Assembly (NCBI GenBank): GCA_016181175.1
Contig: JACOZV010000001.1
Span: 259,519 to 323,518 of the forward strand
From: Candidatus Yanofskybacteria bacterium
Lineage (GTDB): Bacteria; Patescibacteriota; Minisyncoccia; 2-02-FULL-40-12; IGHO2-01-FULL-4-A
Reading direction: 5' to 3'
Length of the DNA: 64,000 nucleotides
This document shows, piece after piece, positions 7,126 to 52,561 of the stretch. Position 1 is the stretch's first letter. Every line of letters starts with the position of its first letter. A program made the translations under genes and the position numbers. The notes under the pieces were generated by a model. It did no database searches, was not told the DNA's origin, and was given only the letters and a program-made list of their open reading frames with translations.

Positions 7126-7334
7126 AGGCCATTATGCCTCATAGCACCGTCAAAAGAGTGGATTGTCCCGATTCTGCTTTGCAGAATCGAGGATCCTCGA
7201 TTTTCATGAATGAAAATCGGGACATGGTTTGCGAGCAGTATAATATTTCCTCACTGCGAGCAAAATCCACGCTTTTGACGGAATGTAGAATTCTCGCTGG
7301 GAATTCAAATGGTGATAGGAGGTATAATGGCGAG
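7126..7334 (-). repeat. family-1 TIR/stem element, copy with internal palindromic insertion, followed by tandem partial duplication (7328-7387)
   Basis: reverse complement of 28019-28168 over both ends (ccattatgcctc..tcacc..ccagcgag..ccgtcaaaag.gtggatt). Confidence 0.7.
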
Positions 7335-7462
7335 CTAGTTTTTGAAATTACCAAAAGGCACTATGGCGAGCTGGTTTTTGAATTTGATAAAAATAGTGAT
7401 TCGTGCTATTTTCAATAACAAGTTTTTTAAAAATTAAATTATAGCCGGAGAGGAGGTGGAAT

Positions 7463-9124: not shown

Positions 9125-9160
9125 ACAAAGACCCAGATCGGGTCTTTTAATTTAGCAAGG

Positions 9161-9475
9161 GGGTTGACCCCGCACCTTTTCAGCACAATAATCACAGCAT
9201 GCACTGGTTATACATAATTAAAAGTAAGGAAAATGGAGAATTATATATCGGCAGCACAGGAAATTTAGTGAAAAGACTGGCCGAACATAATACTGGCAAA
9301 TCTAGAGCTACGACCAGATATAAACCATGGTTTTTTGTTTATATTGAAGGCTATTTTTCTAAGGATGATGCCTTGCATCGCGAACGGAATCTGAAATACT
9401 TTGGCAAAGTCTATGCCCAATTAAAAAGACGTATTAAAAATAGCCTTCAGGGTGCTGAAAAGGTGCGGGGTTGAC
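9161..9475 (+). mobile_element. family-2 inverted-repeat element enclosing a GIY-YIG nuclease ORF
   Basis: ggttgaccccgcaccttttcagcac ... gtgctgaaaaggtgcggggttgac flank the ORF exactly. Confidence 0.6.
9199..9474 (+). CDS. GIY-YIG nuclease family protein (YhbQ/UPF0213-like)
   Basis: 91 aa; YIGSTGNL...RLAEHN GIY-YIG core. Confidence 0.75.
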   Translation: MHWLYIIKSKENGELYIGSTGNLVKRLAEHNTGKSRATTRYKPWFFVYIEGYFSKDDALHRERNLKYFGKVYAQLKRRIKNSLQGAEKVRG

Positions 9476-9548
9476 TTTGTATTCCATTTTGATTTACTGG
9501 TTATAAATATCAAGGTTCTTTTAAATAAAATAAAAAAGGAGACAAATT

Positions 9549-17927: not shown

Positions 17928-17934
17928 TTCTAAA

Positions 17935-18094
17935 AGCTTGGCAAATACTGCCTTCTATCACCGCTAGCAACCCCAGCGAGATTGCGTCGCTCCGTTGAAA
18001 GCGTGGATTCGCCTCGCAGTTCAACCATTATACTGCTCGGTGACCGTGCAATCCACCCTTTCAACGGTGCTATAAAGCAGTATTTGCCAAGCTT
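17935..18094 (+). repeat. family-1 TIR/stem element
   Basis: aagcttggcaaatactgc...gcagtatttgccaagctt termini; internal tatcacc, cccagcgag, ccgttgaaagcgtggatt / aatccaccctttcaacgg. Confidence 0.75.
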
Positions 18095-18147
18095 TTAGAC
18101 TTGACATGTAATGTGTCCGCATATTAAATTTTATATTACTTAATGCC

Positions 18148-21807: not shown

Positions 21808-22428
21808 TTATTTATTTTCTTTAGTCAAAAGATAAATATCCAAAATGCAGTCGAGAATGAAAAGGTGGGTTCTTTCGGTGTGACGATAGGCAGTTGATGG
21901 TACCGCATATTTAGTCAGTAATGGCACATAGAAATTAATGTCGCCCATTTGACGCAATCTGTTATTCGACTGAAAACCGGATAGAGTGATTATGGCTAAA
22001 CCCTTAGATTTGGCTGTGGCAACCGCGTTAATAATATTTTGTGATTCGCCGGAACTTGAAATTGCGATTAAAATATCGCCCGCTTGCCCAAAAGTATCAA
22101 GTGGCAGTTCAAAAACTCTTTCCCAACCCATGTCGTTTGCCGTGGCGGTGAGCATGGCCGGATCGTTGAAAGTATGAGCCTTCAAACCGCAAAACTTCCA
22201 AAAACGATTTGCCGTTTCGCTGGCAATTGAGGCGCTTCCACCGTTTCCGATTATAAAAATACGACCGCCGGATTGTTTTAGAACCTTTAACTTTGAGATG
22301 GCCGCAAAAACCACCCTTGAAAATTTTCTTGGAACGTCACAACAATCAGCCTCAATTGAACTAATAGAATCTACACATTGTTTAAAATATTCTTTGCATG
22401 CTGAATCTCGCCAGTCTAAAGTGTCCAT
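21808..22428 (-). CDS. gmhA: SIS-domain sugar-phosphate isomerase (GmhA/DiaA-like, sedoheptulose-7-phosphate isomerase family)
   Basis: IFIIGNGGSASIASE ... DILIAISSSGES. Confidence 0.75.
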   Translation of the reverse strand: MDTLDWRDSACKEYFKQCVDSISSIEADCCDVPRKFSRVVFAAISKLKVLKQSGGRIFIIGNGGSASIASETANRFWKFCGLKAHTFNDPAMLTATANDMGWERVFELPLDTFGQAGDILIAISSSGESQNIINAVATAKSKGLAIITLSGFQSNNRLRQMGDINFYVPLLTKYAVPSTAYRHTERTHLFILDCILDIYLLTKENK

Positions 22429-22548
22429 GCTTTTACCTCGTCAAGTTTTGGATTGTTAATAGTGCTAATAAATGGATACCCAATTTCAGGAATAATTGCA
22501 ATAGAATTTGTAGATGCCCCATTTTCACGACTTTAATTAAGTGTTAAT

Positions 22549-22689
22549 CTAACGGGATGAATCCCGAACGAGACAGCCTTTGCCAACAACAAGGAAGGGT
22601 TACGATGGCTATCTAAACGGGATTAATAAAGTATTTTTAATAGGCACGGAAATGATTTACTCAATAAATCATTTCCTGTCTCGTACGGG
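22549..22689 (+). repeat. family-3 element: gaatcccgaacgagacag / ctgtctcgtacggg arms with internal hairpin, ending at start codon
   Basis: near-identical copy at 30285-30377 (opposite strand). Confidence 0.75.
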
Positions 22690-23652
22690 ATGAGACGATA
22701 CCTATTTTTATTAATTCAGATTGTTGTCAGCGCGATGCTGGTTTTTTTTATTTTTCAAAATATTCATTTCGGTGACCTCTCGGGAGCGTTTAAGAACGTG
22801 CAGATAGAATATATTTTTATTGCTTTGGTGTTTTCCATTCCCGCGTGGCTTGTGGGTATTTTCAAATGGCAATTCCTGGCCAAAACCATCGTGGACAAAA
22901 CCCCGCCTTTTAGATTTTTTATTTCATACTATCTTGTGGGATATTTCTACGCTTTATTTGTGCCAGGCGGCCAACTTCTAGGCGAAGGAATGAAGGCTTG
23001 GAGGATGTCTAACAAGTCAGAATTCAAACCCCAGTTGTATTTATCGGTTTTTGCCGATAAGGCCATAGGTTTTATGGCTCTAGGCTGTCTGGTTTTAATA
23101 TCTTTTTTGACACAGCCTGTTTTATACGGCGACAGATTGAGTATTTTGAGTCTCGCGGTAAGTGCCGCCATTGTGCTGGCCGGTATTATGATTTTCTTCA
23201 GTCGCGTTTTGCTGGAATACTTTTATAAGGTTCCTGAATTTTTAGTCAAATTTTTGCCGTTATTTATAGCCGGCCACGTCGCCATTTTAAAGGGACTTCT
23301 CATTAAATACAATCAGCGCAGAAAATCTACTCTTATAGGTATCGGAATCGGAGCCATTGCACAGCTTATATGGGTTTTGGTTATATATTTTATTGCCCTC
23401 TCATTTAATCTCCATGTACCATTTTTATTTATTGCCTGGACTTTTTTGATAATGTCTGTAGCCACTTTTCTGCCGGTATCCTATGCCGGCTTGGGAGTGA
23501 GAGAGGGAACGTTTGTCTATTTTTTTTCGTTGTTGGGCGTATCCCGTGAGCTAGCCTTAAGCATATCGCTTATGCTATTCGGTTTTCAGGTGCTGGCTGC
23601 TTTAATCGGGGGAGGTTTTGAATTAAAAGAATTATGGAGTAGAATAAAATAA
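22690..23652 (+). CDS. polytopic membrane protein, flippase-like / lysylphosphatidylglycerol-synthase-TM-region (UPF0104) family
   Basis: 320 aa, ~8 TM helices. Confidence 0.5.
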   Translation: MRRYLFLLIQIVVSAMLVFFIFQNIHFGDLSGAFKNVQIEYIFIALVFSIPAWLVGIFKWQFLAKTIVDKTPPFRFFISYYLVGYFYALFVPGGQLLGEGMKAWRMSNKSEFKPQLYLSVFADKAIGFMALGCLVLISFLTQPVLYGDRLSILSLAVSAAIVLAGIMIFFSRVLLEYFYKVPEFLVKFLPLFIAGHVAILKGLLIKYNQRRKSTLIGIGIGAIAQLIWVLVIYFIALSFNLHVPFLFIAWTFLIMSVATFLPVSYAGLGVREGTFVYFFSLLGVSRELALSISLMLFGFQVLAALIGGGFELKELWSRIK

Positions 23653-23658
23653 AATCAC

Positions 23659-25956
23659 ATGCGCGAGCTATTACTAGTCAAAATCACTAAATATTTAGTT
23701 TATGCCACGGCCTTTGTGCCGTTGATTATATTCTCGCAATTCATATCGCCATTCCATTTCGGCAAAGTGGTGGTTTTTCGTTCGCTTGTGGAGATAATGG
23801 CCGTTTTTTATTTTATTCTGATCATCAAAGACAGAGGTTATTTTCCCAAAAAGCATATACTTCTGACAATTTTCTCTCTTTTCACGCTGATTTTTGTCAT
23901 TTCAACTTTTATCAGCGTCAACCCTTATCTAAGTTTTTGGGGTTCGCTTGAACGTATGGGCGGACTCTGGAGTTTTATCCATTATCTTGTCTATTTCATA
24001 ATTCTTATTTCCATATTCAAGACCCGCGAGGACTGGCTGCGGTTGTTTAAGATAGTTATTTTTGTCGGAGCTCTTTCCGCGTTTTATGGTTTTGGCCAAA
24101 AGACAAATATTGAATTTTTCATAGGTTCTGGGAAACGCGAGAGGATATTTGGCACTATCGGCAATGCCGCTCTGTTTGCTGGTTATCAGATTATAATTTT
24201 ATTCCTTGCTTTGTCTTTGGCTCTTTCTTCTTGGGTATCGACTAAACACAGAGGTTATTTTTTTACCGCCGCTCTTATAAACACAGTTGCTGTTTTAATG
24301 ACTGCCGTTAGGGGTTCTATATTGGGTGTTGGCGTAGGTTTTTTACTTTTTGCTTTCCTTTACACTATTTCTTCTCATTCGCGTACGGCAAAAAAGATTT
24401 TATTGGGCTTGGTCGGTTTGGCTGTTATTTTTGTCGGGTTTGCTTTTGCTTTCAAAACCTCCAATTTTGTAAAAAGTTCCGGTTACTTGACGCGTTTGAC
24501 TGATTTTTCATTCCAGACGCTTACGGTTCAAACTCGTTTTTGGGCTTGGCGAGCTGGGTTAACCGGCTGGGTGGAGACACCAAAAACAATTTTATTCGGC
24601 TGGGGTCCGGAAAACTTTAATGTCCCTTTTTCCAAGCATTTTAATCCCAAGTTTTTCCGCGGTATTGGTTCTGAAACTCTTTTTGACCGTGCCCATAATC
24701 AGTTCGTTGAGATTTTAGTAACAATGGGCGCATTGGCATTTCTGCTCTATATAGCCCTGTTTGCTGTAGCCATGCGTTTGTTGTGGAAACGCGTAGTGCA
24801 AAACGGAAAAGAAAGGGCGATTGGTGTGGGTTTGATATCTTTAATTACCGCATATATTATTCACAATTCATTCATATTTGACACCTCGGCTAATTTTATA
24901 ATATTTTTTACGGTTTTAGGTTTTATTGCATGGTTGACCCCGCACCTTTCTGCGGCAGGTAACATGGGCTTGCGCGAAGCGCAGCCGCAGAAAGGTGCGG
25001 GGCAAGCCCCCATTACCAGTTACCAGTTACCAGTTACCAGTTATAAATTAACCGTCGGTCAACAAACCCTATTGTTTCTTTTGCTGATTGGCGCGGCAGT
25101 CCTGATTTATCGGACGAATATCACGCAGTCCAAGGCTAATTACACAACCACACGTGCCATTGTTAGAAGTTGGTCTGGGGATTTTGATGGTGCTTTGGCT
25201 AAGTATAAAGAAGCGTTGGCTTACGATATACCCGGCAAATATGAGTATCGCCACCGTTTTGCCCAGTGGCTTCTTGAATATGCAAATGGCAAAAAACGGG
25301 GAGAAAAAGAAGAGGCCGCTTTGACGTATGCCATACAGCAAGTGCAGAAAAATGCTGATGAGTCTAATCAGGACTATTTACCATATCTTTACATTTCGCG
25401 TGCCTATATAATTTTAGGCAAAGACGATCTGAAATCGCCGTATAACGACGAAGCATTAAAAAATTCTATGAAAGCATTGGAAATTTCTCCAAGTTTTGTA
25501 AGAGCGTATTACGAAGTAGCGCAGGCTTTTCTAAATAAAAAAGATTATAGCAATGCTATAAAATATTTTGAGCAGGCAGTTAAATTAAACCCCGATGTTG
25601 GTTTGAGCCATTGGTACTTGGGGGCAATCCTAATAGAAACGGGCGATATCGAGGGGGGATTAAAGGCGGTTAGCAGAGCCACTGAACTGGGTTATATGCT
25701 TTCCGAATCCGATACCTTAAGACTGATCAACCTTTACATTAAAACCGGCGATCTTAACAAAATAACTTTCCTTTTTGAGAGATTGATTAGTATAAAGCCC
25801 AATAACCCGCAATATCGTGCTTCGTTGGCGGCAGGTTATGCAAAAATCGGAAAAATAGATGAAGCAGTTGAACAGGCACGTGCCGCTGCTCAACTAGACA
25901 AAACTTTTGAAAGTGAAGCTCGTTCGTTTGTGCGGAGTTTGGGCAGGGAGTGGTAA
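23659..25956 (+). CDS. O-antigen ligase/polymerase (Wzy_C)-like membrane protein with C-terminal TPR repeats; carries in-frame repeat insertion
   Basis: multi-TM N-terminal domain, TPR-like C-terminal; palindrome + heptamer repeat at 24942-25043 inside CDS. Confidence 0.6.
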   Translation: MRELLLVKITKYLVYATAFVPLIIFSQFISPFHFGKVVVFRSLVEIMAVFYFILIIKDRGYFPKKHILLTIFSLFTLIFVISTFISVNPYLSFWGSLERMGGLWSFIHYLVYFIILISIFKTREDWLRLFKIVIFVGALSAFYGFGQKTNIEFFIGSGKRERIFGTIGNAALFAGYQIIILFLALSLALSSWVSTKHRGYFFTAALINTVAVLMTAVRGSILGVGVGFLLFAFLYTISSHSRTAKKILLGLVGLAVIFVGFAFAFKTSNFVKSSGYLTRLTDFSFQTLTVQTRFWAWRAGLTGWVETPKTILFGWGPENFNVPFSKHFNPKFFRGIGSETLFDRAHNQFVEILVTMGALAFLLYIALFAVAMRLLWKRVVQNGKERAIGVGLISLITAYIIHNSFIFDTSANFIIFFTVLGFIAWLTPHLSAAGNMGLREAQPQKGAGQAPITSYQLPVTSYKLTVGQQTLLFLLLIGAAVLIYRTNITQSKANYTTTRAIVRSWSGDFDGALAKYKEALAYDIPGKYEYRHRFAQWLLEYANGKKRGEKEEAALTYAIQQVQKNADESNQDYLPYLYISRAYIILGKDDLKSPYNDEALKNSMKALEISPSFVRAYYEVAQAFLNKKDYSNAIKYFEQAVKLNPDVGLSHWYLGAILIETGDIEGGLKAVSRATELGYMLSESDTLRLINLYIKTGDLNKITFLFERLISIKPNNPQYRASLAAGYAKIGKIDEAVEQARAAAQLDKTFESEARSFVRSLGREW
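24942..25003 (+). repeat. family-2 inverted repeat (ggttgaccccgcacctttctgcggc...gccgcagaaaggtgcgggg) inside CDS, in frame
   Basis: same arms as 9161/9455. Confidence 0.75.
25014..25043 (+). repeat. heptamer tandem repeat (accagtt)x4
   Basis: direct reading; related heptamers at 47691-47768. Confidence 0.8.
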
Positions 25957-28018: not shown

Positions 28019-28168
28019 GCTCGCCATTATGCCTCCTATCACCATTTGAATTCCCAGCGAGAATTCTACATTCCGTCAAAAGCGTGGATTTTGCTCGCAG
28101 TGTTTTACTATTATACTGCTCGCAAACCGTGCAATCCACTCTTTTGACGGTGCTATGAGGCATAATGC
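28019..28168 (+). repeat. family-1 TIR/stem element
   Basis: ctcgccattatgcctcctatcacc...cccagcgag...ccgtcaaaagcgtggatt...aatccactcttttgacggtgctatgaggcataatgc. Confidence 0.75.
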
Positions 28169-28949: not shown

Positions 28950-30284
28950 CTAGCGGAATGCTTTTTTTAAGAGGATATTTATTGTTTTAAGTAAAATTCC
29001 CAGGTCTAAGATCAATGACCTGTTTTTTATGTAAAACAAATCATGCTGGAGTTTTTCATACGTATCTTTGATGGTCATGCCGCCGCGGAAGTCCAGCTTA
29101 TATTTGATTTGCGCCCAACCGGTCAGTCCCGGCTTGACCAAGTAGCGTTCTTCGTAAAAAGGGATTTCAGATTTTAATTTCTGGTGGAACTCGGGTCTTT
29201 CCGGGCGAGGCCCAACAAATGACATTTCGCCGCGCAATATGTTCCAAATTTGCGGTAGTTCGTCAATTCTTGTTTTGCGCAAAAACTTGCCGACTCGCGT
29301 AGTTCGAGCATCATTTTCAGCGGCCCAAATCGGACCCGTACTTTTTTCAATCTCCTGAAACATTGTCCTGAACTTTATTACGGTGAAAATTTTGCCGATT
29401 CGTCCCATTCGTCCTTGGTGATAGAAAACTTGACCACGCGAATCAAGTTTTATAGCTAAGATTATCAAGGGATAAAACGGCAGGGTCAGCAGCCCTATGA
29501 TTATGGTGCCGATTAAATCTAAAATTCTTTTTCCAGTTTCGTATCCGCGTCGGCTACCCTGAGAGAGGTTTTCCAAAAACCAAACCTGATCTATAGTTTC
29601 CAGTGGTATTCTTCCGGCAACTCGTTCATAAAAATCGGACAAGTTGAAAAAATTTATCCCAAAACCTACCAGGTGGTAAAACACGTCTATTATGTGCGGT
29701 ATCTTATAAACCGTCGGAGCCAGAACCAATGTCCGGATATTTTTTCTCTTAATCAGGTTGTCTAAAATTGCAGAAGCGGTTTTATCTCCAATATCAAGTA
29801 TGCCTAAGACGCCGTATCCCAGTTGTGGATTATTCAACAAAAAGTCGTAAAGCTCTTGAGATTGTTGACTCAAGCCGACTATTAATGTATTATTTTTGTA
29901 GCCGTTTTTGGCGGTGAGCCGATTAAAGAAAAAGCGCCAAAATCCTTGTAAGGCTGCAATAATGACAATAAAAACAAATAAGTTGGTTTTGGGGGCGATT
30001 CTAAAAAACTGGACAAAATAGAAGAAAAAAATAGAGATAGACGAAATAACGGCAATTGTATAAAAAAGATCGGAAAAAAAGCGGGCGTTATTTTTAGAAA
30101 GACCTATTTCATACAGATTGGAAATATAAAAAACTATTACCCAAACAACAAAAATAATGGTGAACGGTAGAAAGTGCATGCTGATCTGCTCGTCAAAACT
30201 ACGCCCATACCTTGCATAGAGGGTCAAAAAAAGCGCTAGATATAGGGTAATAATGTCGCCCAAGAAGAGTAAAAATTTACGCAT
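28950..30284 (-). CDS. polyprenyl-phosphate sugar phosphotransferase (bacterial sugar transferase, WbaP/PglC-like)
   Basis: C-terminal [25 protein letters not shown]; N-terminal TM helices; start moved to ATG abutting family-3 repeat. Confidence 0.8.
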
Positions 30285-30377
30285 CCCGTACGAGACAGGA
30301 AATGATTTATCTGAGTAAATCATTTCCGTGCCCATTTAATCTACTTTATTAATCCCGCCTAGATAACCATCGTAACC
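30285..30377 (-). repeat. family-3 element copy (lacks left arm), abuts sugar-transferase start
   Basis: ~90% identical to 22592-22689. Confidence 0.75.
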
Positions 30378-30391
30378 ATTTCGGTATTGGA

Positions 30392-35498: not shown

Positions 35499-35531
35499 TT
35501 CAATTTGTTTATTTTGTGATAAATTATAGGG

Positions 35532-35690
35532 GCTTAGCGAATAATACCTTCTATCACCATTTGTCGCCCCAGCGAGGCGACTGCATTCCGTCAAAAATAT
35601 TAATTTTGATTTTGTTGAAGAAATATTGTAACAAAATCAAACCATGCAATTAACACTTTTGACGGTGCTATAAGGTATTATTCGCTAAGC
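35532..35690 (+). repeat. family-1 TIR/stem element
   Basis: gcttagcgaataatacc...ggtattattcgctaagc termini; tatcacc, ccccagcgag, ccgtcaaaa / ttttgacggtgctata. Confidence 0.75.
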
Positions 35691-35700
35691 CCGTTCATAT

Positions 35701-39276: not shown

Positions 39277-39720
39277 ATGAAAAACAAAAATAAAATTATT
39301 ATAGTCGTGTCAGGCGGTATGGATCCGCTTCATCCGGGCCACATACGTCTTTTCCAGGAAGCCAAGAAGTTGGGCGATGAGCTTGTTGTCATTCTAAATA
39401 ACGACAACTGGTTGAAAAAGAAAAAAGGTTACGTGTTTATGTCTGAAAAAGAACGCAAGGAAGTCATTGAGGCAATCAAGGGGGTTGATCGGGTAATTCT
39501 TACTAAACATTCGTCTAAGACGTTAGATATGAGTGTGCGTGCCGAACTGAAAAAAATTCGGCCCCACATTTTTGCAAACGGCGGCGACAGAAACGAAGGT
39601 AATATTCCAGAAATTGCTGTTTGCAAAAAAATAGGATGCAAGGTGGTTTTTAATGTCGGACGAGGAGGCAAAATCGCTTCAAGTTCTAAACTTGTTGCCG
39701 GCTTTGCAAAAGAAAGTTAA
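39277..39720 (+). CDS. cytidylyltransferase-like nucleotidyltransferase (HxGH; glycerol-3-P cytidylyltransferase/heptose-1-P adenylyltransferase family)
   Basis: IIVVSGGMDPLHPGHIRLF. Confidence 0.75.
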   Translation: MKNKNKIIIVVSGGMDPLHPGHIRLFQEAKKLGDELVVILNNDNWLKKKKGYVFMSEKERKEVIEAIKGVDRVILTKHSSKTLDMSVRAELKKIRPHIFANGGDRNEGNIPEIAVCKKIGCKVVFNVGRGGKIASSSKLVAGFAKES

Positions 39721-39724
39721 TAAT

Positions 39725-39847
39725 GAATCCCGAACGAGACAGCTAATTTTTACCTTGCTAAATAATTGCCGTGTTATTAGTTGTCATTTATGGCGGGATT
39801 ACTTATAATCAACGGAAATGCATAAAGCATTTCCTGTCTCGTACGGG
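39725..39847 (+). repeat. family-3 element spanning the whole intergenic spacer (arm after stop, arm before ATG)
   Basis: gaatcccgaacgagacagc ... ggaaatgcataaagcatttcctgtctcgtacggg-ATG. Confidence 0.75.
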
Positions 39848-40408
39848 ATGAATATTCAAAAAGTAATTTCGGAGACGAGAGATATATTTCTCAAGTCGGA
39901 CGTGTCTTTACCGCTTTTGCTTAAAATAAAAACCACCGAGCTGGTTTTGAATCTTATGGCCCATCAAAAAAATTTTGGTCTTTTTATAATACTTGGCTGG
40001 CAGGATAAATGGCAGGAATATACGGATATTTCTGATGCCGCTCAGGATATTTTTGTTGCTCACCGCATAAACCTGAACGATATAGAAAATCACTCTGATT
40101 GGTATCTTGAGGTGGAGTCTACGGTTGGTTTTGACGGTGCTATCCTGATAGATGGTAACGGCGTGATACAACACTCCGGCGTTATATTGGAAGGTTTGCG
40201 TCCCCGAATGGTTGCCGACGCGATAAATCCGGGTCAGTTCAAGGACTTGTCAGAACAGTTTGGTTTCAAGCAAAAAGTCCATTCAAGACATCTTTTTGCC
40301 ATTACTTCTTCTCATGTTTTTAAAAATACCGCCGTTTTTACTGTTTCTGAAGAGAACAACACTTTCCACATTTTTGAAGCCGGAAAGATTGTTTACTCAA
40401 CAGACTGA
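39848..40408 (+). CDS. hypothetical protein, possible DisA_N/diadenylate-cyclase-like domain (tentative)
   Basis: FDGAILIDGNGVI...RHLFAIT weakly resembles DAC DGA/RHR motifs. Confidence 0.3.
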   Translation: MNIQKVISETRDIFLKSDVSLPLLLKIKTTELVLNLMAHQKNFGLFIILGWQDKWQEYTDISDAAQDIFVAHRINLNDIENHSDWYLEVESTVGFDGAILIDGNGVIQHSGVILEGLRPRMVADAINPGQFKDLSEQFGFKQKVHSRHLFAITSSHVFKNTAVFTVSEENNTFHIFEAGKIVYSTD

Positions 40409-43895: not shown

Positions 43896-45287
43896 GTGTT
43901 ACGTAGATTTACTCCATTGATAATTTTAGCCGTTGCTCTGTTTTTGGGCGTTTTTGCTTATCCTCAAGGTTGGGATATGGGCGCGGACATAGTAAATTCA
44001 AAACTCAAAATCCAAAATTCAAAATATAAGATTCCACGTATGTTTAAAATTCCGCCATTTCGTCTTGGTCTTGACCTGTTGGGCGGTACCCACTTAGTTT
44101 ATCAAGCCGATTTGTCTGGAACCGAGGGTCAAAGCGCTGGTGACGCTATGTCTGGTGTGCGTGACGTTATCGAGCGCAGAGTTAATCTTTTTGGCGTTGC
44201 AGAACCGTTGGTGCAAATTGAAGGCAACGATCGTCTTGTGGTGGAATTGGCCGGCATCAAAGATGTAAATCAGGCAATACAGATGATTGGTCAGACGCCA
44301 TTTTTGGAATTCAAAGAAGAACGTCCGTCAGAAGAGTCGCAAAAAATTATTGAAGCCCAACAAAAAGGTTCATCCAGCACCAGTTTGGACAGCCCCGAAC
44401 TGGTGCTGGACAAGCAACAGTTTGAAGATCCGTATTTTAAGCCAACCGGTTTAACCGGTCGATATCTTAAGCGTTCCCAATTGACATTTGATCAGACAAC
44501 ATCACAACCGGAGGTTTCGCTGGAATTAAACGACGACGGAGCAAAATTATTTGCTGAAATTACAAAGCGAAATATTGGGAAGCGTGTTGCAATTTATGTT
44601 GACGGCGTGGGCATAAGCGCACCGACGGTTCAAAGCGAAATTCCAAGCGGTCGTGCCGTGATCAGTGGCAGTTTTTCCATAAAAGAAGCCAGGGATTTAG
44701 TTAACAATCTTAATGCCGGGGCACTGCCGGTACCGATAAATTTAATTTCACAACAGACGGTGGGCCCTTCTTTGGGGCAGGAATCACTGCAAAAATCATT
44801 GACGGCCGGCTTATACGGATTGCTTGCGGTAGCCATTTTCATGATATTGTTTTACCGTTTGCCCGGCCTTGTGTCAGTTGTCGCTTTGTTGGTGTATGTT
44901 GCAATTGTTCTGACTGTCTATAAAGTAATTCCGGTAACGCTGACTTTGGCCGGAATAGCAGGTTTTATATTGTCTTTGGGTATGGCTGTGGATGCCAATA
45001 TTTTGATTTTTGCCAGAATGCGCGAAGAGTTAAAGGCTGGCAATTCTTTAGCACAGTCATTTGCAAGCGGTTTCCACCGAGCTTGGTACTCAATCCGTGA
45101 CAGTCACGTTACAACTTTGCTCGGCGCTTTTGTGCTGTATGCTTTTTCAACATCTGTGGTTAGGGGATTTGCTTTGACGCTTGGAATCGGAGTTTTGGCA
45201 AGTTTGTTTACGGCCATTGTTATTACTAAATCATTTTTAAGGTTGTTTATTGGACACAAAATGGAGAAAACAAAGTGGATGTTTTAA
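43896..45287 (+). CDS. secD: protein-export membrane protein SecD
   Basis: 463 aa; N-terminal TM, periplasmic domain, C-terminal 6-TM RND-like block. Confidence 0.9.
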   Translation: MLRRFTPLIILAVALFLGVFAYPQGWDMGADIVNSKLKIQNSKYKIPRMFKIPPFRLGLDLLGGTHLVYQADLSGTEGQSAGDAMSGVRDVIERRVNLFGVAEPLVQIEGNDRLVVELAGIKDVNQAIQMIGQTPFLEFKEERPSEESQKIIEAQQKGSSSTSLDSPELVLDKQQFEDPYFKPTGLTGRYLKRSQLTFDQTTSQPEVSLELNDDGAKLFAEITKRNIGKRVAIYVDGVGISAPTVQSEIPSGRAVISGSFSIKEARDLVNNLNAGALPVPINLISQQTVGPSLGQESLQKSLTAGLYGLLAVAIFMILFYRLPGLVSVVALLVYVAIVLTVYKVIPVTLTLAGIAGFILSLGMAVDANILIFARMREELKAGNSLAQSFASGFHRAWYSIRDSHVTTLLGAFVLYAFSTSVVRGFALTLGIGVLASLFTAIVITKSFLRLFIGHKMEKTKWMF

Positions 45288-45291
45288 ATAT

Positions 45292-45570
45292 GAATCCCAA
45301 ACGAGACAGCAAAACCATGTTTTATACATATGTTTTAAGAAATAAAAAAAGCCGCTTTTATGTTGGTTTTACTTATGATTTACGGAAACGCTTCAATGAA
45401 CATAATAATAAAAAATCAACTTATACAAAATATCGTGGCCCATACGAACTTATTTACTATGAAGCTTGTCTTGATGAGAATGACGCTCGTTAAAGAGAAA
45501 AGTATTTTAAATCTGGAACAGGTAAACGCTACTTCAAAAACAGATTGAAGCGTTTCCTGTCTCGTACTGG
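45292..45570 (+). mobile_element. family-3 arms enclosing a GIY-YIG ORF, inserted between secD and secF
   Basis: gaatcccaaacgagacagc after secD stop; ttcctgtctcgtactgg immediately before secF ATG. Confidence 0.6.
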
Positions 45571-45571
45571 A
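45317..45571 (+). pseudogene. GIY-YIG nuclease (YhbQ-like) interrupted by in-frame TAA at codon 59; would otherwise end ATGA-overlapped with secF
   Basis: FYTYVLRNKKSRFYVGFTYDLRKRFNEHN...YELIYYEACLDENDAR-stop-REKYFKSGTGKRYFKNRLKRFL. Confidence 0.6.
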
Positions 45572-46461
45572 TGAAACCCATATATACAATTATGTTTTTT
45601 ATTTCCATGGCGCTGACTGTCGCGGCCGTTATTTTGGTGGCAGTTTTTGGTTTGCGTTTTGGGGTAGATTTCAAGGGCGGCTCTTTACTGGAAATTGCCT
45701 TTGTTAATCCTCGTCCATCAACCGGAGAAATACAAAATATTATAAGCGGGATTGACGGTGTCAAAAACATAAATGTAAATCCGGTGGGTGACAACGGTGC
45801 TTTAATAAGGCTAAATGATATCAATGAGCAGACTCATCAAGATATTTTAACTAAGATTTCCGGAAGTTTTGGTGAGATAATGGAAAATCGCTTTGATTCC
45901 ATAGGTCCTGTAGTCGGCAATGAGTTGAGAGATAAGAGCGTTAAGGCAATAGTAATTTTATTAATAGCTATAATTATTTATCTCGCTTTTGTTTTTAGGA
46001 AAATTTCACGCGTTCTTTCCTCTTGGGCTATGGGTTTAGCTGCCATTGTTGCGCTGGTTCATGATGTTATTATACCCGTTGGCGTTTTTGCGTTACTTGG
46101 GCATTATTATGGAATTGAGATTACGGCAATTTTTGTGGCGGCCGCATTAACTATTTTGGGGTATTCGCTTTCTGACTCCGTTGTTATTTTTGATAGAGTA
46201 AGAGAAAACGTGCTTCGTTTGGGCATTTCTCATCAAAGTTTCGGAGCACTTGTCCACAAAAGTGTCTTACAAACCCTGGTCCGTTCCATTAATACGACCC
46301 TCACAACGCTATTTTCTCTGATTGTGATTTACTTTTTTGGAGGAGAATCAATAAAATACTTTTCTTTAGCCCTAATTATAGGTATTTTTTCAGGCGCTTA
46401 TTCTTCAATTTTTGTTGCTTCTCCGATTCTAGTTTGGCTTAGCAATCGACGCAAGAGTTAA
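45571..46461 (+). CDS. secF: protein-export membrane protein SecF
   Basis: 296 aa, 6-TM SecF pattern. Confidence 0.9.
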   Translation: MKPIYTIMFFISMALTVAAVILVAVFGLRFGVDFKGGSLLEIAFVNPRPSTGEIQNIISGIDGVKNINVNPVGDNGALIRLNDINEQTHQDILTKISGSFGEIMENRFDSIGPVVGNELRDKSVKAIVILLIAIIIYLAFVFRKISRVLSSWAMGLAAIVALVHDVIIPVGVFALLGHYYGIEITAIFVAAALTILGYSLSDSVVIFDRVRENVLRLGISHQSFGALVHKSVLQTLVRSINTTLTTLFSLIVIYFFGGESIKYFSLALIIGIFSGAYSSIFVASPILVWLSNRRKS

Positions 46462-47684: not shown

Positions 47685-47690
47685 ATGCTT

Positions 47691-47768
47691 CCAGTAAACG
47701 GTAATCAGTAACCAGTAATCAGTAATTTATTTTTTGATTTTTCCAGTTACCAGTTACGAGTTACTAAT
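47691..47768. repeat. inverted arrays of agtaacc/agtaatc heptamers around a T-run
   Basis: taatcagtaaccagtaatcagtaat ... ccagttaccagttacgagttactaat. Confidence 0.7.
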
Positions 47769-47779
47769 TACTTTGTATT

Positions 47780-52364: not shown

Positions 52365-52398
52365 AACCGGCTTAAGCCGGTTTTATGGTTTATGAGGG

Positions 52399-52447
52399 TC
52401 CGTCCACCAGGAATCGAACCTGGAACCTTCTCCTTAAAAGGGAGCTG
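52399..52447 (-). repeat. duplicated 3' half (anticodon stem to 3' end) of tRNA-Lys, not a complete tRNA
   Basis: 49 nt identical to 52489-52537 region of the full gene. Confidence 0.8.
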
Positions 52448-52488
52448 TCCTGGTTTTGTAAACAAAATCGAGGATTCTCGATACAAAG

Positions 52489-52561
52489 TCCGTCCACCAG
52501 GAATCGAACCTGGAACCTTCTCCTTAAAAGGGAGCTGCTCTACCAATTGAGCTATGGACGG
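52489..52561 (-). tRNA. tRNA-Lys (anticodon UUU)
   Basis: manual fold: acceptor CCGTCCA/TGGACGG, U8, D-loop AATTGGTA, anticodon loop CUUUUAA, T-loop TTCGATT. Confidence 0.75.

Follow-up and report, generated by a model that had tools for sequence, protein, structure and literature searches.

A 285-bp GIY-YIG nuclease gene with complementary ends that sits on host start codons: a probable autonomous mobile element of Patescibacteria

Introduction

In the stretch of DNA analysed here (hereafter the window, 64,000 nucleotides of a Candidatus Yanofskybacteria MAG), the same short sequence runs directly into the start codons of four long ORFs, at 22690, 39848 and 45571 and, on the minus strand, at 30284. 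What is this sequence, and how did it come to end exactly where the translation of unrelated genes begins? A sequence-only reading had described it as a hairpin leader whose partner arm follows the stop codon of the upstream gene, so that whole spacers are filled, and had offered two interpretations: an RNA structure for translational coupling or regulation, or a mobile element that targets spacers. We consider it probable that the copies belong to a new autonomous mobile element of Patescibacteria (CPR) and its MITE-like derivatives, which inserts at start codons and owes its mobility to the nuclease that it encodes.

Four copies in the window

Four copies (c1 to c4) were found by reading the sequence and by a motif search. 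The search with ATCCCGWACGAGACAG, allowing up to 3 mismatches, returned seven arm matches where 0.34 are expected, a number that none of 100 shuffled sequences reached; a relaxed scan of the window found no further copies. Paired with each other, the two arms of a copy make up a terminal stem, P1; another helix, P2, adjoins the 3′ strand of P1 and is stacked directly on it. In all four copies the right end reads ...TGTCTCGTAC(G/T)GG, also written ...CCTGTCTCGTAC(G/T)GG, and the next three bases are the ATG of an ORF of 320, 186, 296 and 444 codons for c1, c2, c3 and c4, respectively. The set comprises one decayed full-length copy (c3) and three miniatures with internal deletions (c1, c2 and c4), each of which keeps P1, P2 or both.

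The full-length copy c3 (45290–45574, plus strand) is a 285-nt GIY-YIG ORF that runs from its ATG to a TGA overlapping the ATG of secF (45571–45573). It has decayed, with an in-frame TAA at 45491–45493 and substitutions in both arms, and is still recognized by Pfam as GIY-YIG (PF01541, 1.7e-14, 54 bits against a cut-off of 22.6), with 80% identity to the intact protein P0001. Its left arm, ATCCCAAACGAGACAG (45294–45309), and its right arm, CTGTCTCGTACTGGAT (45557–45572), carry one mismatch each. The 5′ strand of P2, GGAAACGCTTCAA (45384–45396, codons for RKRFN), pairs over a long range with the 3′ strand, TTGAAGCGTTTCC (45545–45557, codons for LKRF).

The miniature c1 spans 22557–22693 (plus strand), including both flanking ATGA repeats, and lies 5′ of a flippase-like ORF of 320 codons (22690–23652). 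Its left arm, ATCCCGAACGAGACAG (22561–22576), corresponds to codons 2–7 (NPERDS) of the parent gene; the hairpin P2, GGAAATGATTTA / TAAATCATTTCC (22648–22676), stacks directly on the right arm, CTGTCTCGTACGGGAT (22676–22691), the final two bases of which are the AT of the host ATG (22690–22692). The predicted RNA fold has an energy of −45.8 kcal/mol (z = −6.6). Scanning c1 for promoters and terminators found nothing, so there is no evidence of a promoter supplied by the element. Immediately upstream, TCTAACGGGATGA (22548–22560) is identical to the final 13 nt of the right end of the other arm subtype (V/L-type), and may be the remnant of an older copy at c1's start codon: it contains nine extra matching bases at the exact position, for which the chance is about 4e-6. 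When the 130 nt upstream of c1 were aligned locally with all elements, the overall match was no better than that of shuffled sequences, and an origin from the element appears convincing for the terminal 13 nt only.

The miniature c2 (39723–39851, plus strand) lies between a nucleotidyltransferase-like gene and a DAC-like ORF of 186 codons (39848–40408). Its left arm (39727–39742) was located by the motif search; its P2 hairpin, GGAAATGC / GCATTTCC (39814–39834), corresponds to the long-range P2 of the full-length gene in a collapsed form, and its right arm (39834–39849) leads into the host ATG at 39848–39850 (fold z = −5.1). The last copy, c4 (30282–30380, minus strand), is a miniature of the c1 type which has lost its left arm and retains the right arm (30283–30298), P2 (30298–30327) and the interior; it adjoins the ATG (30284–30282) of a sugar-transferase ORF of 444 codons. 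The repeat matches I4 (88% identity) and I13 (100%) support this assignment. Miniatures with the same type of deletion recur across loci and genomes (c1, c4, L030, L063 and L126).

The location of the motif at the four start codons was thus correctly described in the sequence-only reading, since each copy is followed by an ATG and a long ORF. The partner arm, which it had placed at 22549, 39725 and 45292, exists in c1, c2 and c3; it was implied for c4 too, where it is absent. That this arm comes right after an upstream stop holds approximately for c2 and c3, whose upstream stops (TAA at 39718–39720 and 45285–45287) lie 6 nt before the arm, with the four nucleotides ATGA in between, and fails at 22549: no co-directional gene precedes c1, the neighbour (21808–22428) is divergent, and c1 therefore covers only 137 nt of a spacer of 261 nt, contrary to the idea that the element fills whole spacers. 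Where a spacer does look filled, it is because stop and start were adjacent or overlapping before the insertion. Nor is there a local hairpin in every copy, since in c3 the equivalent structure is the long-range helix GGAAACGCTTCAA / TTGAAGCGTTTCC, which encloses most of the ORF.

A minimal GIY-YIG nuclease whose gene is the whole element

The autonomous form is 285 bp long and contains exactly one ORF, which codes for a minimal GIY-YIG nuclease of 94 amino acids of the Slx1/UPF0213 type. The arms are the first and the last seven codons of this ORF (ATG AAT CCC GAA CGA GAC AGC and TTC CTG TCT CGT ACG GGA TGA), which are mutually complementary. The earlier description had not recognized the arms as the two ends of a GIY-YIG ORF.

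The nuclease belongs to the GIY-YIG superfamily. Y14, Y24, G26, R32, H38 and E58 are invariant in 30 relatives, and include the catalytic Tyr, Tyr, Arg, His and Glu. Its nearest branch, by sequence and by fold, is that of the minimal Slx1/UPF0213 proteins (COG2827): a profile search against the PDB matches the UPF0213 structures 1zg2 (9.9e-10) and 1ywl (1.4e-5), then SLX1 (7wme, 0.008), and the top Foldseek matches of the AlphaFold model (pLDDT 86, with residues 1–6 disordered) are 1zg2, Slx1–Slx4 (7cq3/6seh), 1ywl and 4xm5, with TM scores of 0.51–0.58 compared with only 0.33 for UvrC. The length varies between 85 and 94 residues, which corresponds to the bare catalytic domain with no auxiliary or DNA-binding domain. 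With a dN/dS of 0.08 (dS 1.4) over eight intact copies, the nuclease core is under purifying selection and functional.

Two helices constrain the coding sequence

P1 is a stem of 16 bp between arms of 16 nt, ATCCCG(A/T)ACGAGACAG, which are complementary at 15 of 16 positions and form imperfect inverted repeats. In the full-length gene, about 150 nt of coding sequence lie inside P2, which in the miniatures is a short hairpin.

Both helices covary inside the coding sequence. The variants of the arms change jointly (GAGACAG/CTGTCTC, GAGTTA/TAACTC, GAGCTAG/CTGGCTC, GAGAT/ATCTC), and so do those of P2 (GCCTCAA/TTGAGGC, GCTTCAA/TTGAAGC, GCCTTAA/TTAAGGC, GTTTGA/TCAAAC). In 17 full-length copies 95% of the cells are paired, compared with 26–45% when the partners are slid; two-sided changes are seen in seven pairs, compared with 0–2 in the slid controls, and none of 500 shuffles reaches the observed covariation, which supports the pairing of the arms that had been proposed from the sequence. 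The folding z-scores range from −5 to −7. Even in L136, L140, L146 and L155, where the nuclease is not in frame with the first ATG, the arms are retained. The constraint on P1 and P2 acts at the level of the nucleic acid, and the covariation of amino acids (E/R, V/L, L/R, F/K) is a consequence of base pairing. The element is a clear natural case of a dual constraint on one sequence, by a protein and by a nucleic-acid fold. P1 is not simply optimized for pairing, since an A.A mismatch at its position 7 is conserved in the main subtype.

Are these helices made of RNA or of single-stranded DNA? The two strands fold equally well and the excess of G.U (13) over A.C (4) is small, so that the two are not told apart by folding. 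It could be argued that P1 and P2 are signals for the processing of a transcript rather than for transposition: the stack of P1 and P2 would be cut at its base, by RNase III or by the nuclease of the element, which would either free a leaderless host mRNA, starting on its AUG or beside it, or take the whole element out of the RNA. Such processing would account for the exact position of the element's end on the start codon. P1 ends precisely on the AU of the host AUG and forms with P2 a quasi-continuous helix of about 28 bp; the wobble pairs, such as the G.U in P1 of L175 and in P2 of L137, favour the sense strand; a Shine–Dalgarno sequence is not needed in these genes; and the miniatures keep P1 and P2 while their interiors differ completely from one miniature type to another. 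There are also GIY-YIG ORFs in non-intron insertions of CPR rRNA genes, whose removal necessarily occurs at the RNA level (PMC11270868). On the contrary, the element has no conserved catalytic core, c4 cannot form P1 without a left arm and yet precedes an intact ORF of 444 codons, the 16-bp P1 has a conserved internal mismatch, and RNA processing leaves the movement of the DNA unexplained. At the gathering score, the only match of Rfam 15 in the window is a tRNA, and no match was obtained with E up to 1 at three loci with full-length and miniature copies. We regard RNA processing as an unlikely purpose of the helices, although one to be taken seriously; it concerns what the helices are for and is partly compatible with the reading of the sequence as a mobile element.

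The insertion site

Orthologous loci without the element exist in related Yanofskybacteria. Homologue searches, followed by a look-up of the gene context, gave secD–secF junctions of related Yanofskybacteria that read ...TAATTTTATGAAAAAT... and ...ATATTTTATGAAACCT..., compared with ...TAAAT[ATGA-element]ATGAAACCC in the window; the nucleotidyltransferase/DAC junction (the c2 locus) is likewise empty in relatives. The empty loci (for example TTTTATGAAACC) have a single ATGA, and the window has ATGA-element-ATGA. At both junctions, therefore, related genomes differ by the presence or absence of the element at a precise site.

In a census of metagenomes and genomes with a pattern that does not itself include ATG, all 34 distinct genuine right ends, counted by scans with exact arm words and hence biased to close relatives, are followed by an ATG and an ORF which has 67–570 codons or is open to the end of the contig; the copies, which include those of the window and of the genome scan, are in the same orientation as the host gene in 34 cases out of 34. 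Five chance matches had no ATG and ORF behind them, and, as a control, an ORF of 86 codons or more begins at 18% of the ATGA sites in these loci. The scan of genome contigs with the 16-mer arms returned mostly chance matches in high-GC genomes, the real copies being L030, L062, L063 and L065. More diverse members (L161, L164, L174, L175, L179 and L184) overlap the next gene by ATGA in six cases out of six, and one diverse member lies between dnaG and rpoD. A variant with altered termini (L121/L131) is found on a stop codon instead of a start codon. The scan of viral contigs gave three chance matches, in contigs of 60–71% GC, and none for the V/L-type end, hence no sign of a phage vector. Identical nuclease proteins are found on many contigs and could be mistaken for multiple recent copies; they always mapped to one locus in many samples, so that we see no very recent burst.

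The census shows a positional bias to start codons. The earlier reading's suggestion of a mobile element is supported by the empty orthologous sites, by the more than 30 unrelated sites and by the existence of full-length and miniature forms; what has to be given up is the spacer as target, since the element sits on the start codon itself. The other suggestion, a native cis-regulatory leader shared by a regulon (similar to a riboswitch, an attenuator or a thermometer), has next to no chance of being right. A stable and conserved fold immediately 5′ of start codons is indeed what such a leader would look like, but the empty sites contradict this suggestion: what precedes the start codons is a nuclease gene or what remains of one, is absent from orthologues, has no match in Rfam, and stands before unrelated host genes (secF, rpoD, CCA-adding enzyme, glycosyltransferases, phosphatase and others).

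The site ATGR occurs once in the empty alleles and twice in the filled ones. The repeats to the left and to the right are ATGA/ATGA in most copies, ATGG/ATGG in L065 and L146, and GTGA/ATGA in L138, and the left junction is shorter by one base in five copies. The flanks would fit a 4-bp duplication, a 2-bp duplication next to an AT that ends the element, or no duplication at all. The sequences could equally be read as a 2-bp duplication (GR) beside the ends 5′-ATCCCG...CGGGAT-3′, the terminal AT rebuilding the ATG. The flanks of the 34 host sites have nothing in common beyond ATGR, and a target of 4 nt cannot explain an exclusive location on start codons. A host Shine–Dalgarno sequence left behind at the left junction was considered and rejected: SD-like tetramers are not enriched there (4/33, compared with 16% at random).

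Could the element be moved by the enzymes of a known system? Its imperfect terminal inverted repeats of 16 bp, the short direct repeat (ATGR or GR) and the miniatures at many loci would suit an ordinary MITE or IS, whose ends would be bound by an unlinked transposase (of the DDE type, for example), the short repeat being a target-site duplication and the GIY-YIG ORF a passenger or a captured gene. We find this improbable: the ORF spans the full-length element from the first to the last base, so that a second gene would not fit, none of about 40 loci has a linked transposase gene, position and orientation are invariant in the 34 copies, and P2 is internal and split, its 5′ strand lying about 80 nt in from the left end, as suits a folded single strand but not a duplex end bound by a protein. 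A classical free-standing homing endonuclease gene, which would spread only into one cognate site by a double-strand break and homologous repair, is also a nuclease gene located between host genes and present or absent in related genomes. This reading is very improbable, since the element occupies 34 or more unrelated host sites whose only common sequence is ATGR, their flanks show no recognition site longer than 12 bp, the protein consists of a bare catalytic domain of 85–94 residues that lacks a DNA-binding domain, and neither structured ends nor non-coding miniatures at new loci are features of such genes.

Proposed mechanism

Our preferred explanation remains that of a mobile element that depends on its own nuclease. 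The nuclease, a relative of structure-specific junction nucleases, would recognize its own coding sequence in single-stranded form, folded into the P1/P2 junction, and would cut it at the P1 base, leaving a short stagger; repair or ligation by the host would then complete excision and insertion. GIY-YIG enzymes hydrolyse DNA and we know of no strand transfer by any of them, so that the nuclease alone cannot be a complete transposase. How the element moves, and how it finds start codons, is our inference.

After insertion, the original host ATG opens the nuclease ORF or a short uORF. The stop codon TGA of the nuclease overlaps the rebuilt host ATG (ATGA), and the insertion would be tolerated because of this rebuilt ATG and of the stop/start overlap, the host gene probably being translated by coupled termination and reinitiation. 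The translational coupling suggested in the sequence-only reading is therefore plausible, since the ORF of the element ends in a TGA that overlaps the host ATG. Translation from upstream would melt P1, which may otherwise bury the host AUG. The uORF opened by the native ATG ends 55–124 nt short of the host ATG in most miniatures, whose tolerance is therefore not explained by simple coupling. Nor are in-frame fusions of miniatures to the host protein a general explanation, since most of the spacings from the left to the right ATG are not divisible by 3 and stop codons intervene.

More tentatively, since the odds are in our opinion somewhat against it, the element could represent a new superfamily among the mobile elements of prokaryotes, and the smallest that is autonomous, with a Slx1-like GIY-YIG protein of about 90 residues as its only encoded function, a folded three-way junction within its own coding sequence as its cis-acting ends, and an integration directed to start codons either by a feature of the initiation region or by RNA processing that yields leaderless mRNA. 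If so, even essential genes such as rpoD and secF could be colonized in streamlined genomes, and the cost would be low.

Significance

If the proposed reading is correct, a Slx1-like GIY-YIG protein joins the short list of enzymes that drive DNA mobility, and 285 bp becomes the new lower limit for the size of an autonomous mobile element. The element would also illustrate how a parasite can enter essential and densely packed genes without killing its host: it takes the start codon, rebuilds an ATG at its own end, and passes the ribosome on through the ATGA overlap. Thousands of CPR genes annotated as "hypothetical excinuclease / GIY-YIG", and many "intergenic spacers", would be re-annotated, and the start-codon calls next to such genes could be corrected. 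An insertion activity that seeks start codons would be of interest as a tool.

Comparison with known systems

We searched the literature and found no description of such an element, and a new kind of autonomous mobile element is the best reading of the data. Several known systems nevertheless resemble it in part.

A homing endonuclease gene has one cognate target of about 12–40 bp and spreads only to the homologous empty allele; the element has 34 distinct host sites and no single long cognate target. The free-standing GIY-YIG homing genes (seg of phage T4, and fungal mitochondrial ORFs at gene ends) are, likewise, selfish nuclease genes located between host genes, which use host expression signals and are present or absent between relatives (PMC2988022, PMC1564403). 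Their enzymes, which are of the UvrC/I-TevI lineage, possess DNA-binding domains (PMC1564403), and the genes have one long cognate site, neither structured nor inverted-repeat ends, and no miniatures at other loci. The present element, on the contrary, encodes a minimal Slx1-like domain, has P1/P2 ends and derivatives similar to MITEs, and occupies no fewer than 34 sites with only ATGR in common.

Bacterial MITEs such as the Correia elements of Neisseria are about 100–160 nt long, have terminal inverted repeats and a short duplicated target, lie next to genes, and their repeats fold in the transcript. The element resembles them in size, terminal inverted repeats and proximity to genes, and its short direct repeat may likewise be a duplicated target. 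MITEs of this type derive from IS parents with DDE transposases, and occur in both orientations and at variable distances from genes, whereas the parent of the present miniatures is a nuclease ORF of 285 bp, no transposase being found between the same ends, and position and orientation at the start codon are exact.

The IS200/IS605 elements, their palindrome-associated derivatives and the REP/RAYT system depend on HUH (Y1) transposases that form covalent intermediates, and each of their ends has its own hairpin; they insert 3′ of a short, specific site, which is not duplicated. They are like the present element in that they are very small, with a bias in strand or orientation and non-autonomous hairpin derivatives, and perhaps also in their folded single-stranded ends and in a tetranucleotide target that resembles the far end. 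They differ in having no stem that joins both ends and no link to start codons; in the present element, P2 is a hairpin at the right end, P1 joins both ends, the ATGR of the left flank and of the right end can be read either way, and the sole ORF between the ends, which fills the whole element, codes for the 94-residue GIY-YIG protein and not for a HUH (Y1) transposase.

The Slx1/UPF0213 proteins (YhbQ, BH0048, EF2693), a family of structure-specific nucleases that cleave branched DNA, are the best matches of the nuclease in sequence and fold, and share its minimal GIY-YIG domain. The known members are regarded as vertically inherited, housekeeping repair enzymes (PMC1564403), and no complementary termini, multi-copy state or mobility are known for them. 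Last, the rRNA genes of CPR contain insertions that encode GIY-YIG proteins and are neither group I nor group II introns (PMC11270868). They have the host phylum and a GIY-YIG protein in common with the element, and are located inside rRNA genes, not on start codons; it may be that the element also explains these non-intron insertions.

Copies in the window

The 16-mer ATCCCGWACGAGACAG, searched with at most three mismatches, matches the window seven times against 0.34 expected, a number that was reached in 0 of 100 shuffles. The matches form inverted arm pairs in copy 1 (22557-22693, plus strand; arms at 22561/22676), copy 2 (39723-39851, plus strand; 39727/39834) and copy 3 (45290-45574, plus strand; 45294/45557), and a solo right end at 30283 in copy 4 (30282-30380, minus strand); a relaxed scan with either end found no further copies in the window. 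All four right ends read ...CCTGTCTCGTAC(G/T)GG and run directly into the ATG of an ORF (320, 186, 296 and 444 codons). The sequence-only reading, which described a motif abutting start codons, was therefore correct, with exceptions. The partner arm that it placed after the stop of the upstream gene is present in copies 1-3 and absent from copy 4, and copy 1 has no co-directional upstream gene, its neighbour (21808-22428) being divergent. The hairpin attributed to every copy is, in copy 3, a long-range helix.

The nuclease gene

Copy 3 holds one 94-codon frame, which runs from an ATG located before the left arm to a TGA that overlaps the ATG of secF, and whose translation (MNPKRDSKTMFYTYVLRN...KRFLSRTG-stop, with a single internal TAA) matches Pfam GIY-YIG (1.7e-14). 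The left arm makes up codons 2-7 (NPERDS) and the right arm the final codons (FLSRTG-stop). Aligned to this gene, copies 1, 2 and 4 match parts of it and show frameshifts as well as large internal deletions; copy 2 keeps ...YGGITYNQRK..., a remnant of the YxGxT.DLRKR motif. An intact 94-aa version is found at L062, a locus outside the window (as are all those designated by L-numbers) in a Yanofskybacteria MAG.

Protein searching yielded over 1,900 relatives; all the named ones are from Patescibacteria. Alignment of 30 relatives shows invariant catalytic residues (Tyr, Tyr, Arg, His and Glu), and the termini read MNP(E/V)RD... and ...RFLS(R/L)TG. The enzyme belongs to the Slx1/UPF0213 branch of the GIY-YIG superfamily: its profile retrieves, among PDB sequences, 1zg2 and 1ywl, two bacterial UPF0213 proteins, followed by SLX1, and its AlphaFold model (pLDDT 86, residues 1-6 disordered) best matches 1zg2 and Slx1 structures, UvrC scoring far lower. 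The Slx1-like branch is the minimal form and is vertically inherited, while the known selfish GIY-YIG enzymes derive from the other, UvrC-like branch (PMC1564403).

Insertion at host start codons

The window belongs to a Candidatus Yanofskybacteria MAG. The SecF orthologues of two other Yanofskybacteria genomes (75-77% identity) are encoded directly after secD, without the element. The secD-secF junction reads ...GTGGCTGTTTTAATTTTATGAAAAATATT... in L159 and ...GATATTTTATGAAACCTGTATATAAAATCATG... in L160 (both empty), and ...GTGGATGTTTTAAAT[ATGAATCCCA...GTACTGG]ATGAAACCCATATATACAATTATG... in the window (filled, the element being between brackets), which shows that the ATG at the right end of the element is the native start of secF; the protein begins with MKPIYTIMFF in the window and MKPVYKIMFF in L160. 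ATGA occurs once at the empty junctions and twice at the filled one. Similarly, at the site of copy 2, whose host protein is 100% identical to HYT61_01490 (374-kb contig), the nucleotidyltransferase-like and DAC-like genes of the relatives abut or overlap (GGTAATGACGG; AAATAATGGAAAA) and there is no element. Both empty-site relatives carry the family elsewhere in their genomes (L030 in JACPNJ01, L063 in JACOZZ01), so the difference is one of site occupancy.

Metagenomes were scanned with the 18-mer TTTCCTGTCTCGTACGGG, from which the ATG was deliberately excluded, and 37 loci were obtained. The census consists of these loci, the window and four loci from a genome scan, minus duplicate flanks and left arms read in reverse. 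An ATG and an ORF (67-570 codons, or open to the contig end) follow 34 of the 34 distinct genuine right ends, and element and host gene are co-oriented in all 34; five chance matches lack this pattern. As a control, only 18% of all ATGA sites in the census loci are the start of an ORF of 86 codons or more. It is important to note that scans with exact arm words sample close relatives, and that distant members come from only six protein look-ups; all of the latter (L161, L164-173, L174, L175-178, L179, L184) have the 4-nt ATGA overlap with the next gene, and the element ATG of L174 and L175 is itself overlapped by the stop of the gene upstream.

The host genes are mutually unrelated; among them are secF, rpoD (immediately after dnaG), genes for a CCA-adding enzyme, glycosyltransferases, an Exo_endo_phos phosphatase and a 7TM protein. 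The elements fall into three size classes, of 285 nt (full-length), 238-247 nt and 127-140 nt (miniatures), and non-coding miniatures with the same type of deletion are present at different loci and genomes (copies 1 and 4, L030, L063, L126). The empty orthologous sites and the many unrelated host sites support the mobile element that the sequence-only reading had offered as an alternative, which we retain in place of its regulatory leader. Comparison of these loci shows a mobile insertion that, in its autonomous form, consists of a single nuclease ORF.

On the left, the usual junction is ...ATGA followed by ATCCCG, and on the right CGGG followed by ATGA.... When the fourth base of the host is G, ATGG is found on both sides (L065, L146), which suggests a duplication of the target. 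L138, a single case with GTGA on the left and ATGA on the right, fits a 2-bp (GA) duplication beside the termini 5'-ATCCCG...CGGGAT-3'; the terminal AT of the element would then rebuild the ATG. The left junction is one base shorter in five copies (L134, L140, L146, L155, L174), where ATG precedes ATCCCG or ATGG precedes TCCCG, and the cut positions deduced from the junctions are only approximate. The left flank of copy 1 (TCTAACGGGATGA, 22548-22560) is identical to the last 13 nt of a right end of the other arm subtype, which suggests that this start codon had an earlier occupant, hence serial insertion at one start codon, and that the rebuilt ATGA stays a target.

A conserved fold at the ends

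The ends of the element are a conserved nucleic-acid fold and not a protein motif. The first ATG of L136, L140, L146 and L155 either does not share the nuclease frame or meets a stop seven codons later, so that an internal Met must start the nuclease, giving 85-aa forms; such forms are present among the relatives found by protein search. The arm sequence is kept in these loci despite the unusable first ATG. The arms, which form a 16-bp terminal stem (P1), change subtype on both sides together: CCCGAACGAGACAG/CTGTCTCGTACGGG, CCCGTTAGAGACA/TGTCTCTAACGGG, ...GAGTTA/TAACTC..., ...GAGCTAG/CTGGCTC... (with a G.U pair) and ...GAGAT/ATCTC.... These two-sided changes produce the amino-acid covariation between the protein termini, of E with R and of V with L.

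A second helix (P2) is located immediately 5' of the right arm. In full-length copies, the RKR(L/F) codons pair with the L(R/K)RF codons about 150 nt downstream, and the strands covary (GGAAACGCCTCAA/TTGAGGCGTTTCC, ..GCTTCAA/TTGAAGC.., ..GCCTTAA/TTAAGGC.., ..GTTTGA/TCAAAC.., ..GTTTTAA/TTAAAAC..). In miniatures, P2 is a local hairpin with compensated variants such as GGAAATGATTTA/TAAATCATTTCC, GGAGATGATTTAC/GTAAATCATCTCC, GGATTAGCTA/TAGCTAATCC and GGATTATGTTTT/AAAACATAATCC. Over 17 distinct full-length copies, standard pairs make up 95% of the cells in the 28 P1 and P2 pairs, versus 26-45% when the partners are slid; two-sided changes affect seven pairs (24 cells), versus 0-2 pairs (0-6 cells) in the slid controls, and the observed covariation was reached by 0 of 500 shuffles.

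Conservation at third codon positions averages 0.87 for the left arm and 0.98 for the 5' strand of P2, both outside the search pattern, versus about 0.71 elsewhere. The nuclease core has a dN/dS of 0.08 (eight intact copies; dS 1.4, saturated). Together these values indicate that the protein is functional and that the ends are separately constrained. In predicted folds, P1 is the closing stem and P2 stacks on it (z = -5 to -7), both strands folding equally well. The wobble pairs of P1 (13 G.U and 4 A.C) lean to the sense strand, which is only suggestive. An A.A mismatch at P1 position 7 is conserved and marks the main subtype.

Tolerance, mobility and target choice

The aligned loci show that the element lands on start codons in the orientation of the host gene, with ATG on both sides, that its stop overlaps the host start and that its ends form conserved helices. 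The host initiation region would now drive the nuclease ORF, and ribosomes would reinitiate at the ATGA overlap to translate the host gene, whose AUG would be buried by P1 unless upstream translation melts this stem. Shine-Dalgarno-like tetramers are not enriched upstream of the native starts (4 of 33 element left flanks, versus 16% at random), and the Yanofskybacteria genes carrying elements seem to initiate without them.

Two miniatures keep a 43-codon ORF across the whole element. In eight, an ATG inside P2 (GGAAATG, where full-length copies have GGAAACG) opens an 11-15-codon ORF ending in the ATGA overlap, and four have an ATG in frame with the host ATG. The ORFs starting in P2 (22652, 39818 and 30335 in the window; L126, L127, L132, L134, L138, L143, L152) are short and end in the overlap or run in frame into the host ORF. 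As the miniature copies are not independent, their ORFs are weak evidence on how insertion is tolerated. Because of the ATG in P2, ORF calling puts starts at 39818 and 30335, which, judged by the NCBI annotation and by orthologues, are 10 and 17 codons too early.

Branched DNA is the substrate of Slx1-type enzymes, and the cuts of GIY-YIG enzymes typically have 2-nt 3' overhangs. The nuclease may act on a folded single strand, cutting it at the base of P1, or make a staggered cut at AT^GR in duplex DNA; once ligated or repaired by the host, either cut would yield junctions like those observed. That only start-codon ATGR sites are occupied may reflect real target recognition of initiation regions. 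It may also be survivorship, if only precise loss of the element is viable at these positions. A third possibility is an RNA-level role of P1 and P2 that is effective at no other place than the 5' end of an ORF; a message beginning at its AUG would be released by processing at the helix base.

Other elements and repeats

A variant miniature with the family arms (L131, 1505-1694, the same as L121) has the termini ACCCCG/CGGGGT and GTTGA on both flanks; it lies on the TGA that ends the upstream gene, with 65 nt left to the next ATG, and holds a nested small palindrome (ATCCCGTACGAAGT...ACTTCGTTCGGGA). A change of termini appears to accompany a change of target. The window has another, distinct GIY-YIG element (9159-9477), with a 91-aa ORF (9199-9474) about 37% identical to the start-codon family, a perfect 20-nt inverted repeat (ACCCCGCACCTTTTCAGCAC) at its ends and GGGGTTGAC on both outer sides. 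It is intergenic and not on a start codon: a terminator-like hairpin (9128-9149) precedes it, and 72 nt separate it from the next gene. Targeting of start codons therefore belongs to the studied family and its termini, not to all such elements.

The window also contains a separate intergenic family of about 170 nt (7130-7335, 17929-18099, 28019-28167, 35530-35692), made of long imperfect palindromes, 61-94% alike and not on start codons, and short TTACCAG heptamer arrays (24999-25057 and 47688-47770). Positions 52398-52447 and 52488-52561 hold a minus-strand tRNA-Lys(UUU) together with an exact copy of 50 nt from its 3' part, at a distance of 90 nt, which is the trace that integration of an element into a tRNA gene leaves. 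In Clostridia MAGs (L013, L024, L061, L098), the 16-mer occurs within an unrelated repeat (...AAAAATCCCGAACGAGACAGTAC...GTTCGGGAT), a hairpin recurring in several gut Clostridia contigs; this match is a chance of composition.

Comparison with known systems

We found no description of a start-codon-inserting GIY-YIG element in the full-text literature searched, and the element matches no Rfam family. The nearest published observation that we found, compared by description only, is that of scattered GIY-YIG-encoding insertions in the rRNA genes of CPR bacteria, which are neither introns nor homing-like (PMC11270868). A classical homing endonuclease gene is rejected on the grounds of the many unrelated sites, the lack of a DNA-binding domain, the structured ends and the miniatures. 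A DDE-type insertion sequence or MITE is rejected as well: no transposase gene is linked to the element in any of about 40 loci, its position and orientation do not vary, and one of its conserved helices is split and lies inside it. By the features tested, the element falls outside every described class of prokaryotic mobile element. It is not of the IS200/IS605 type, since the HUH enzyme is absent, but it would resemble that type in its dependence on folded ends and a tetranucleotide.
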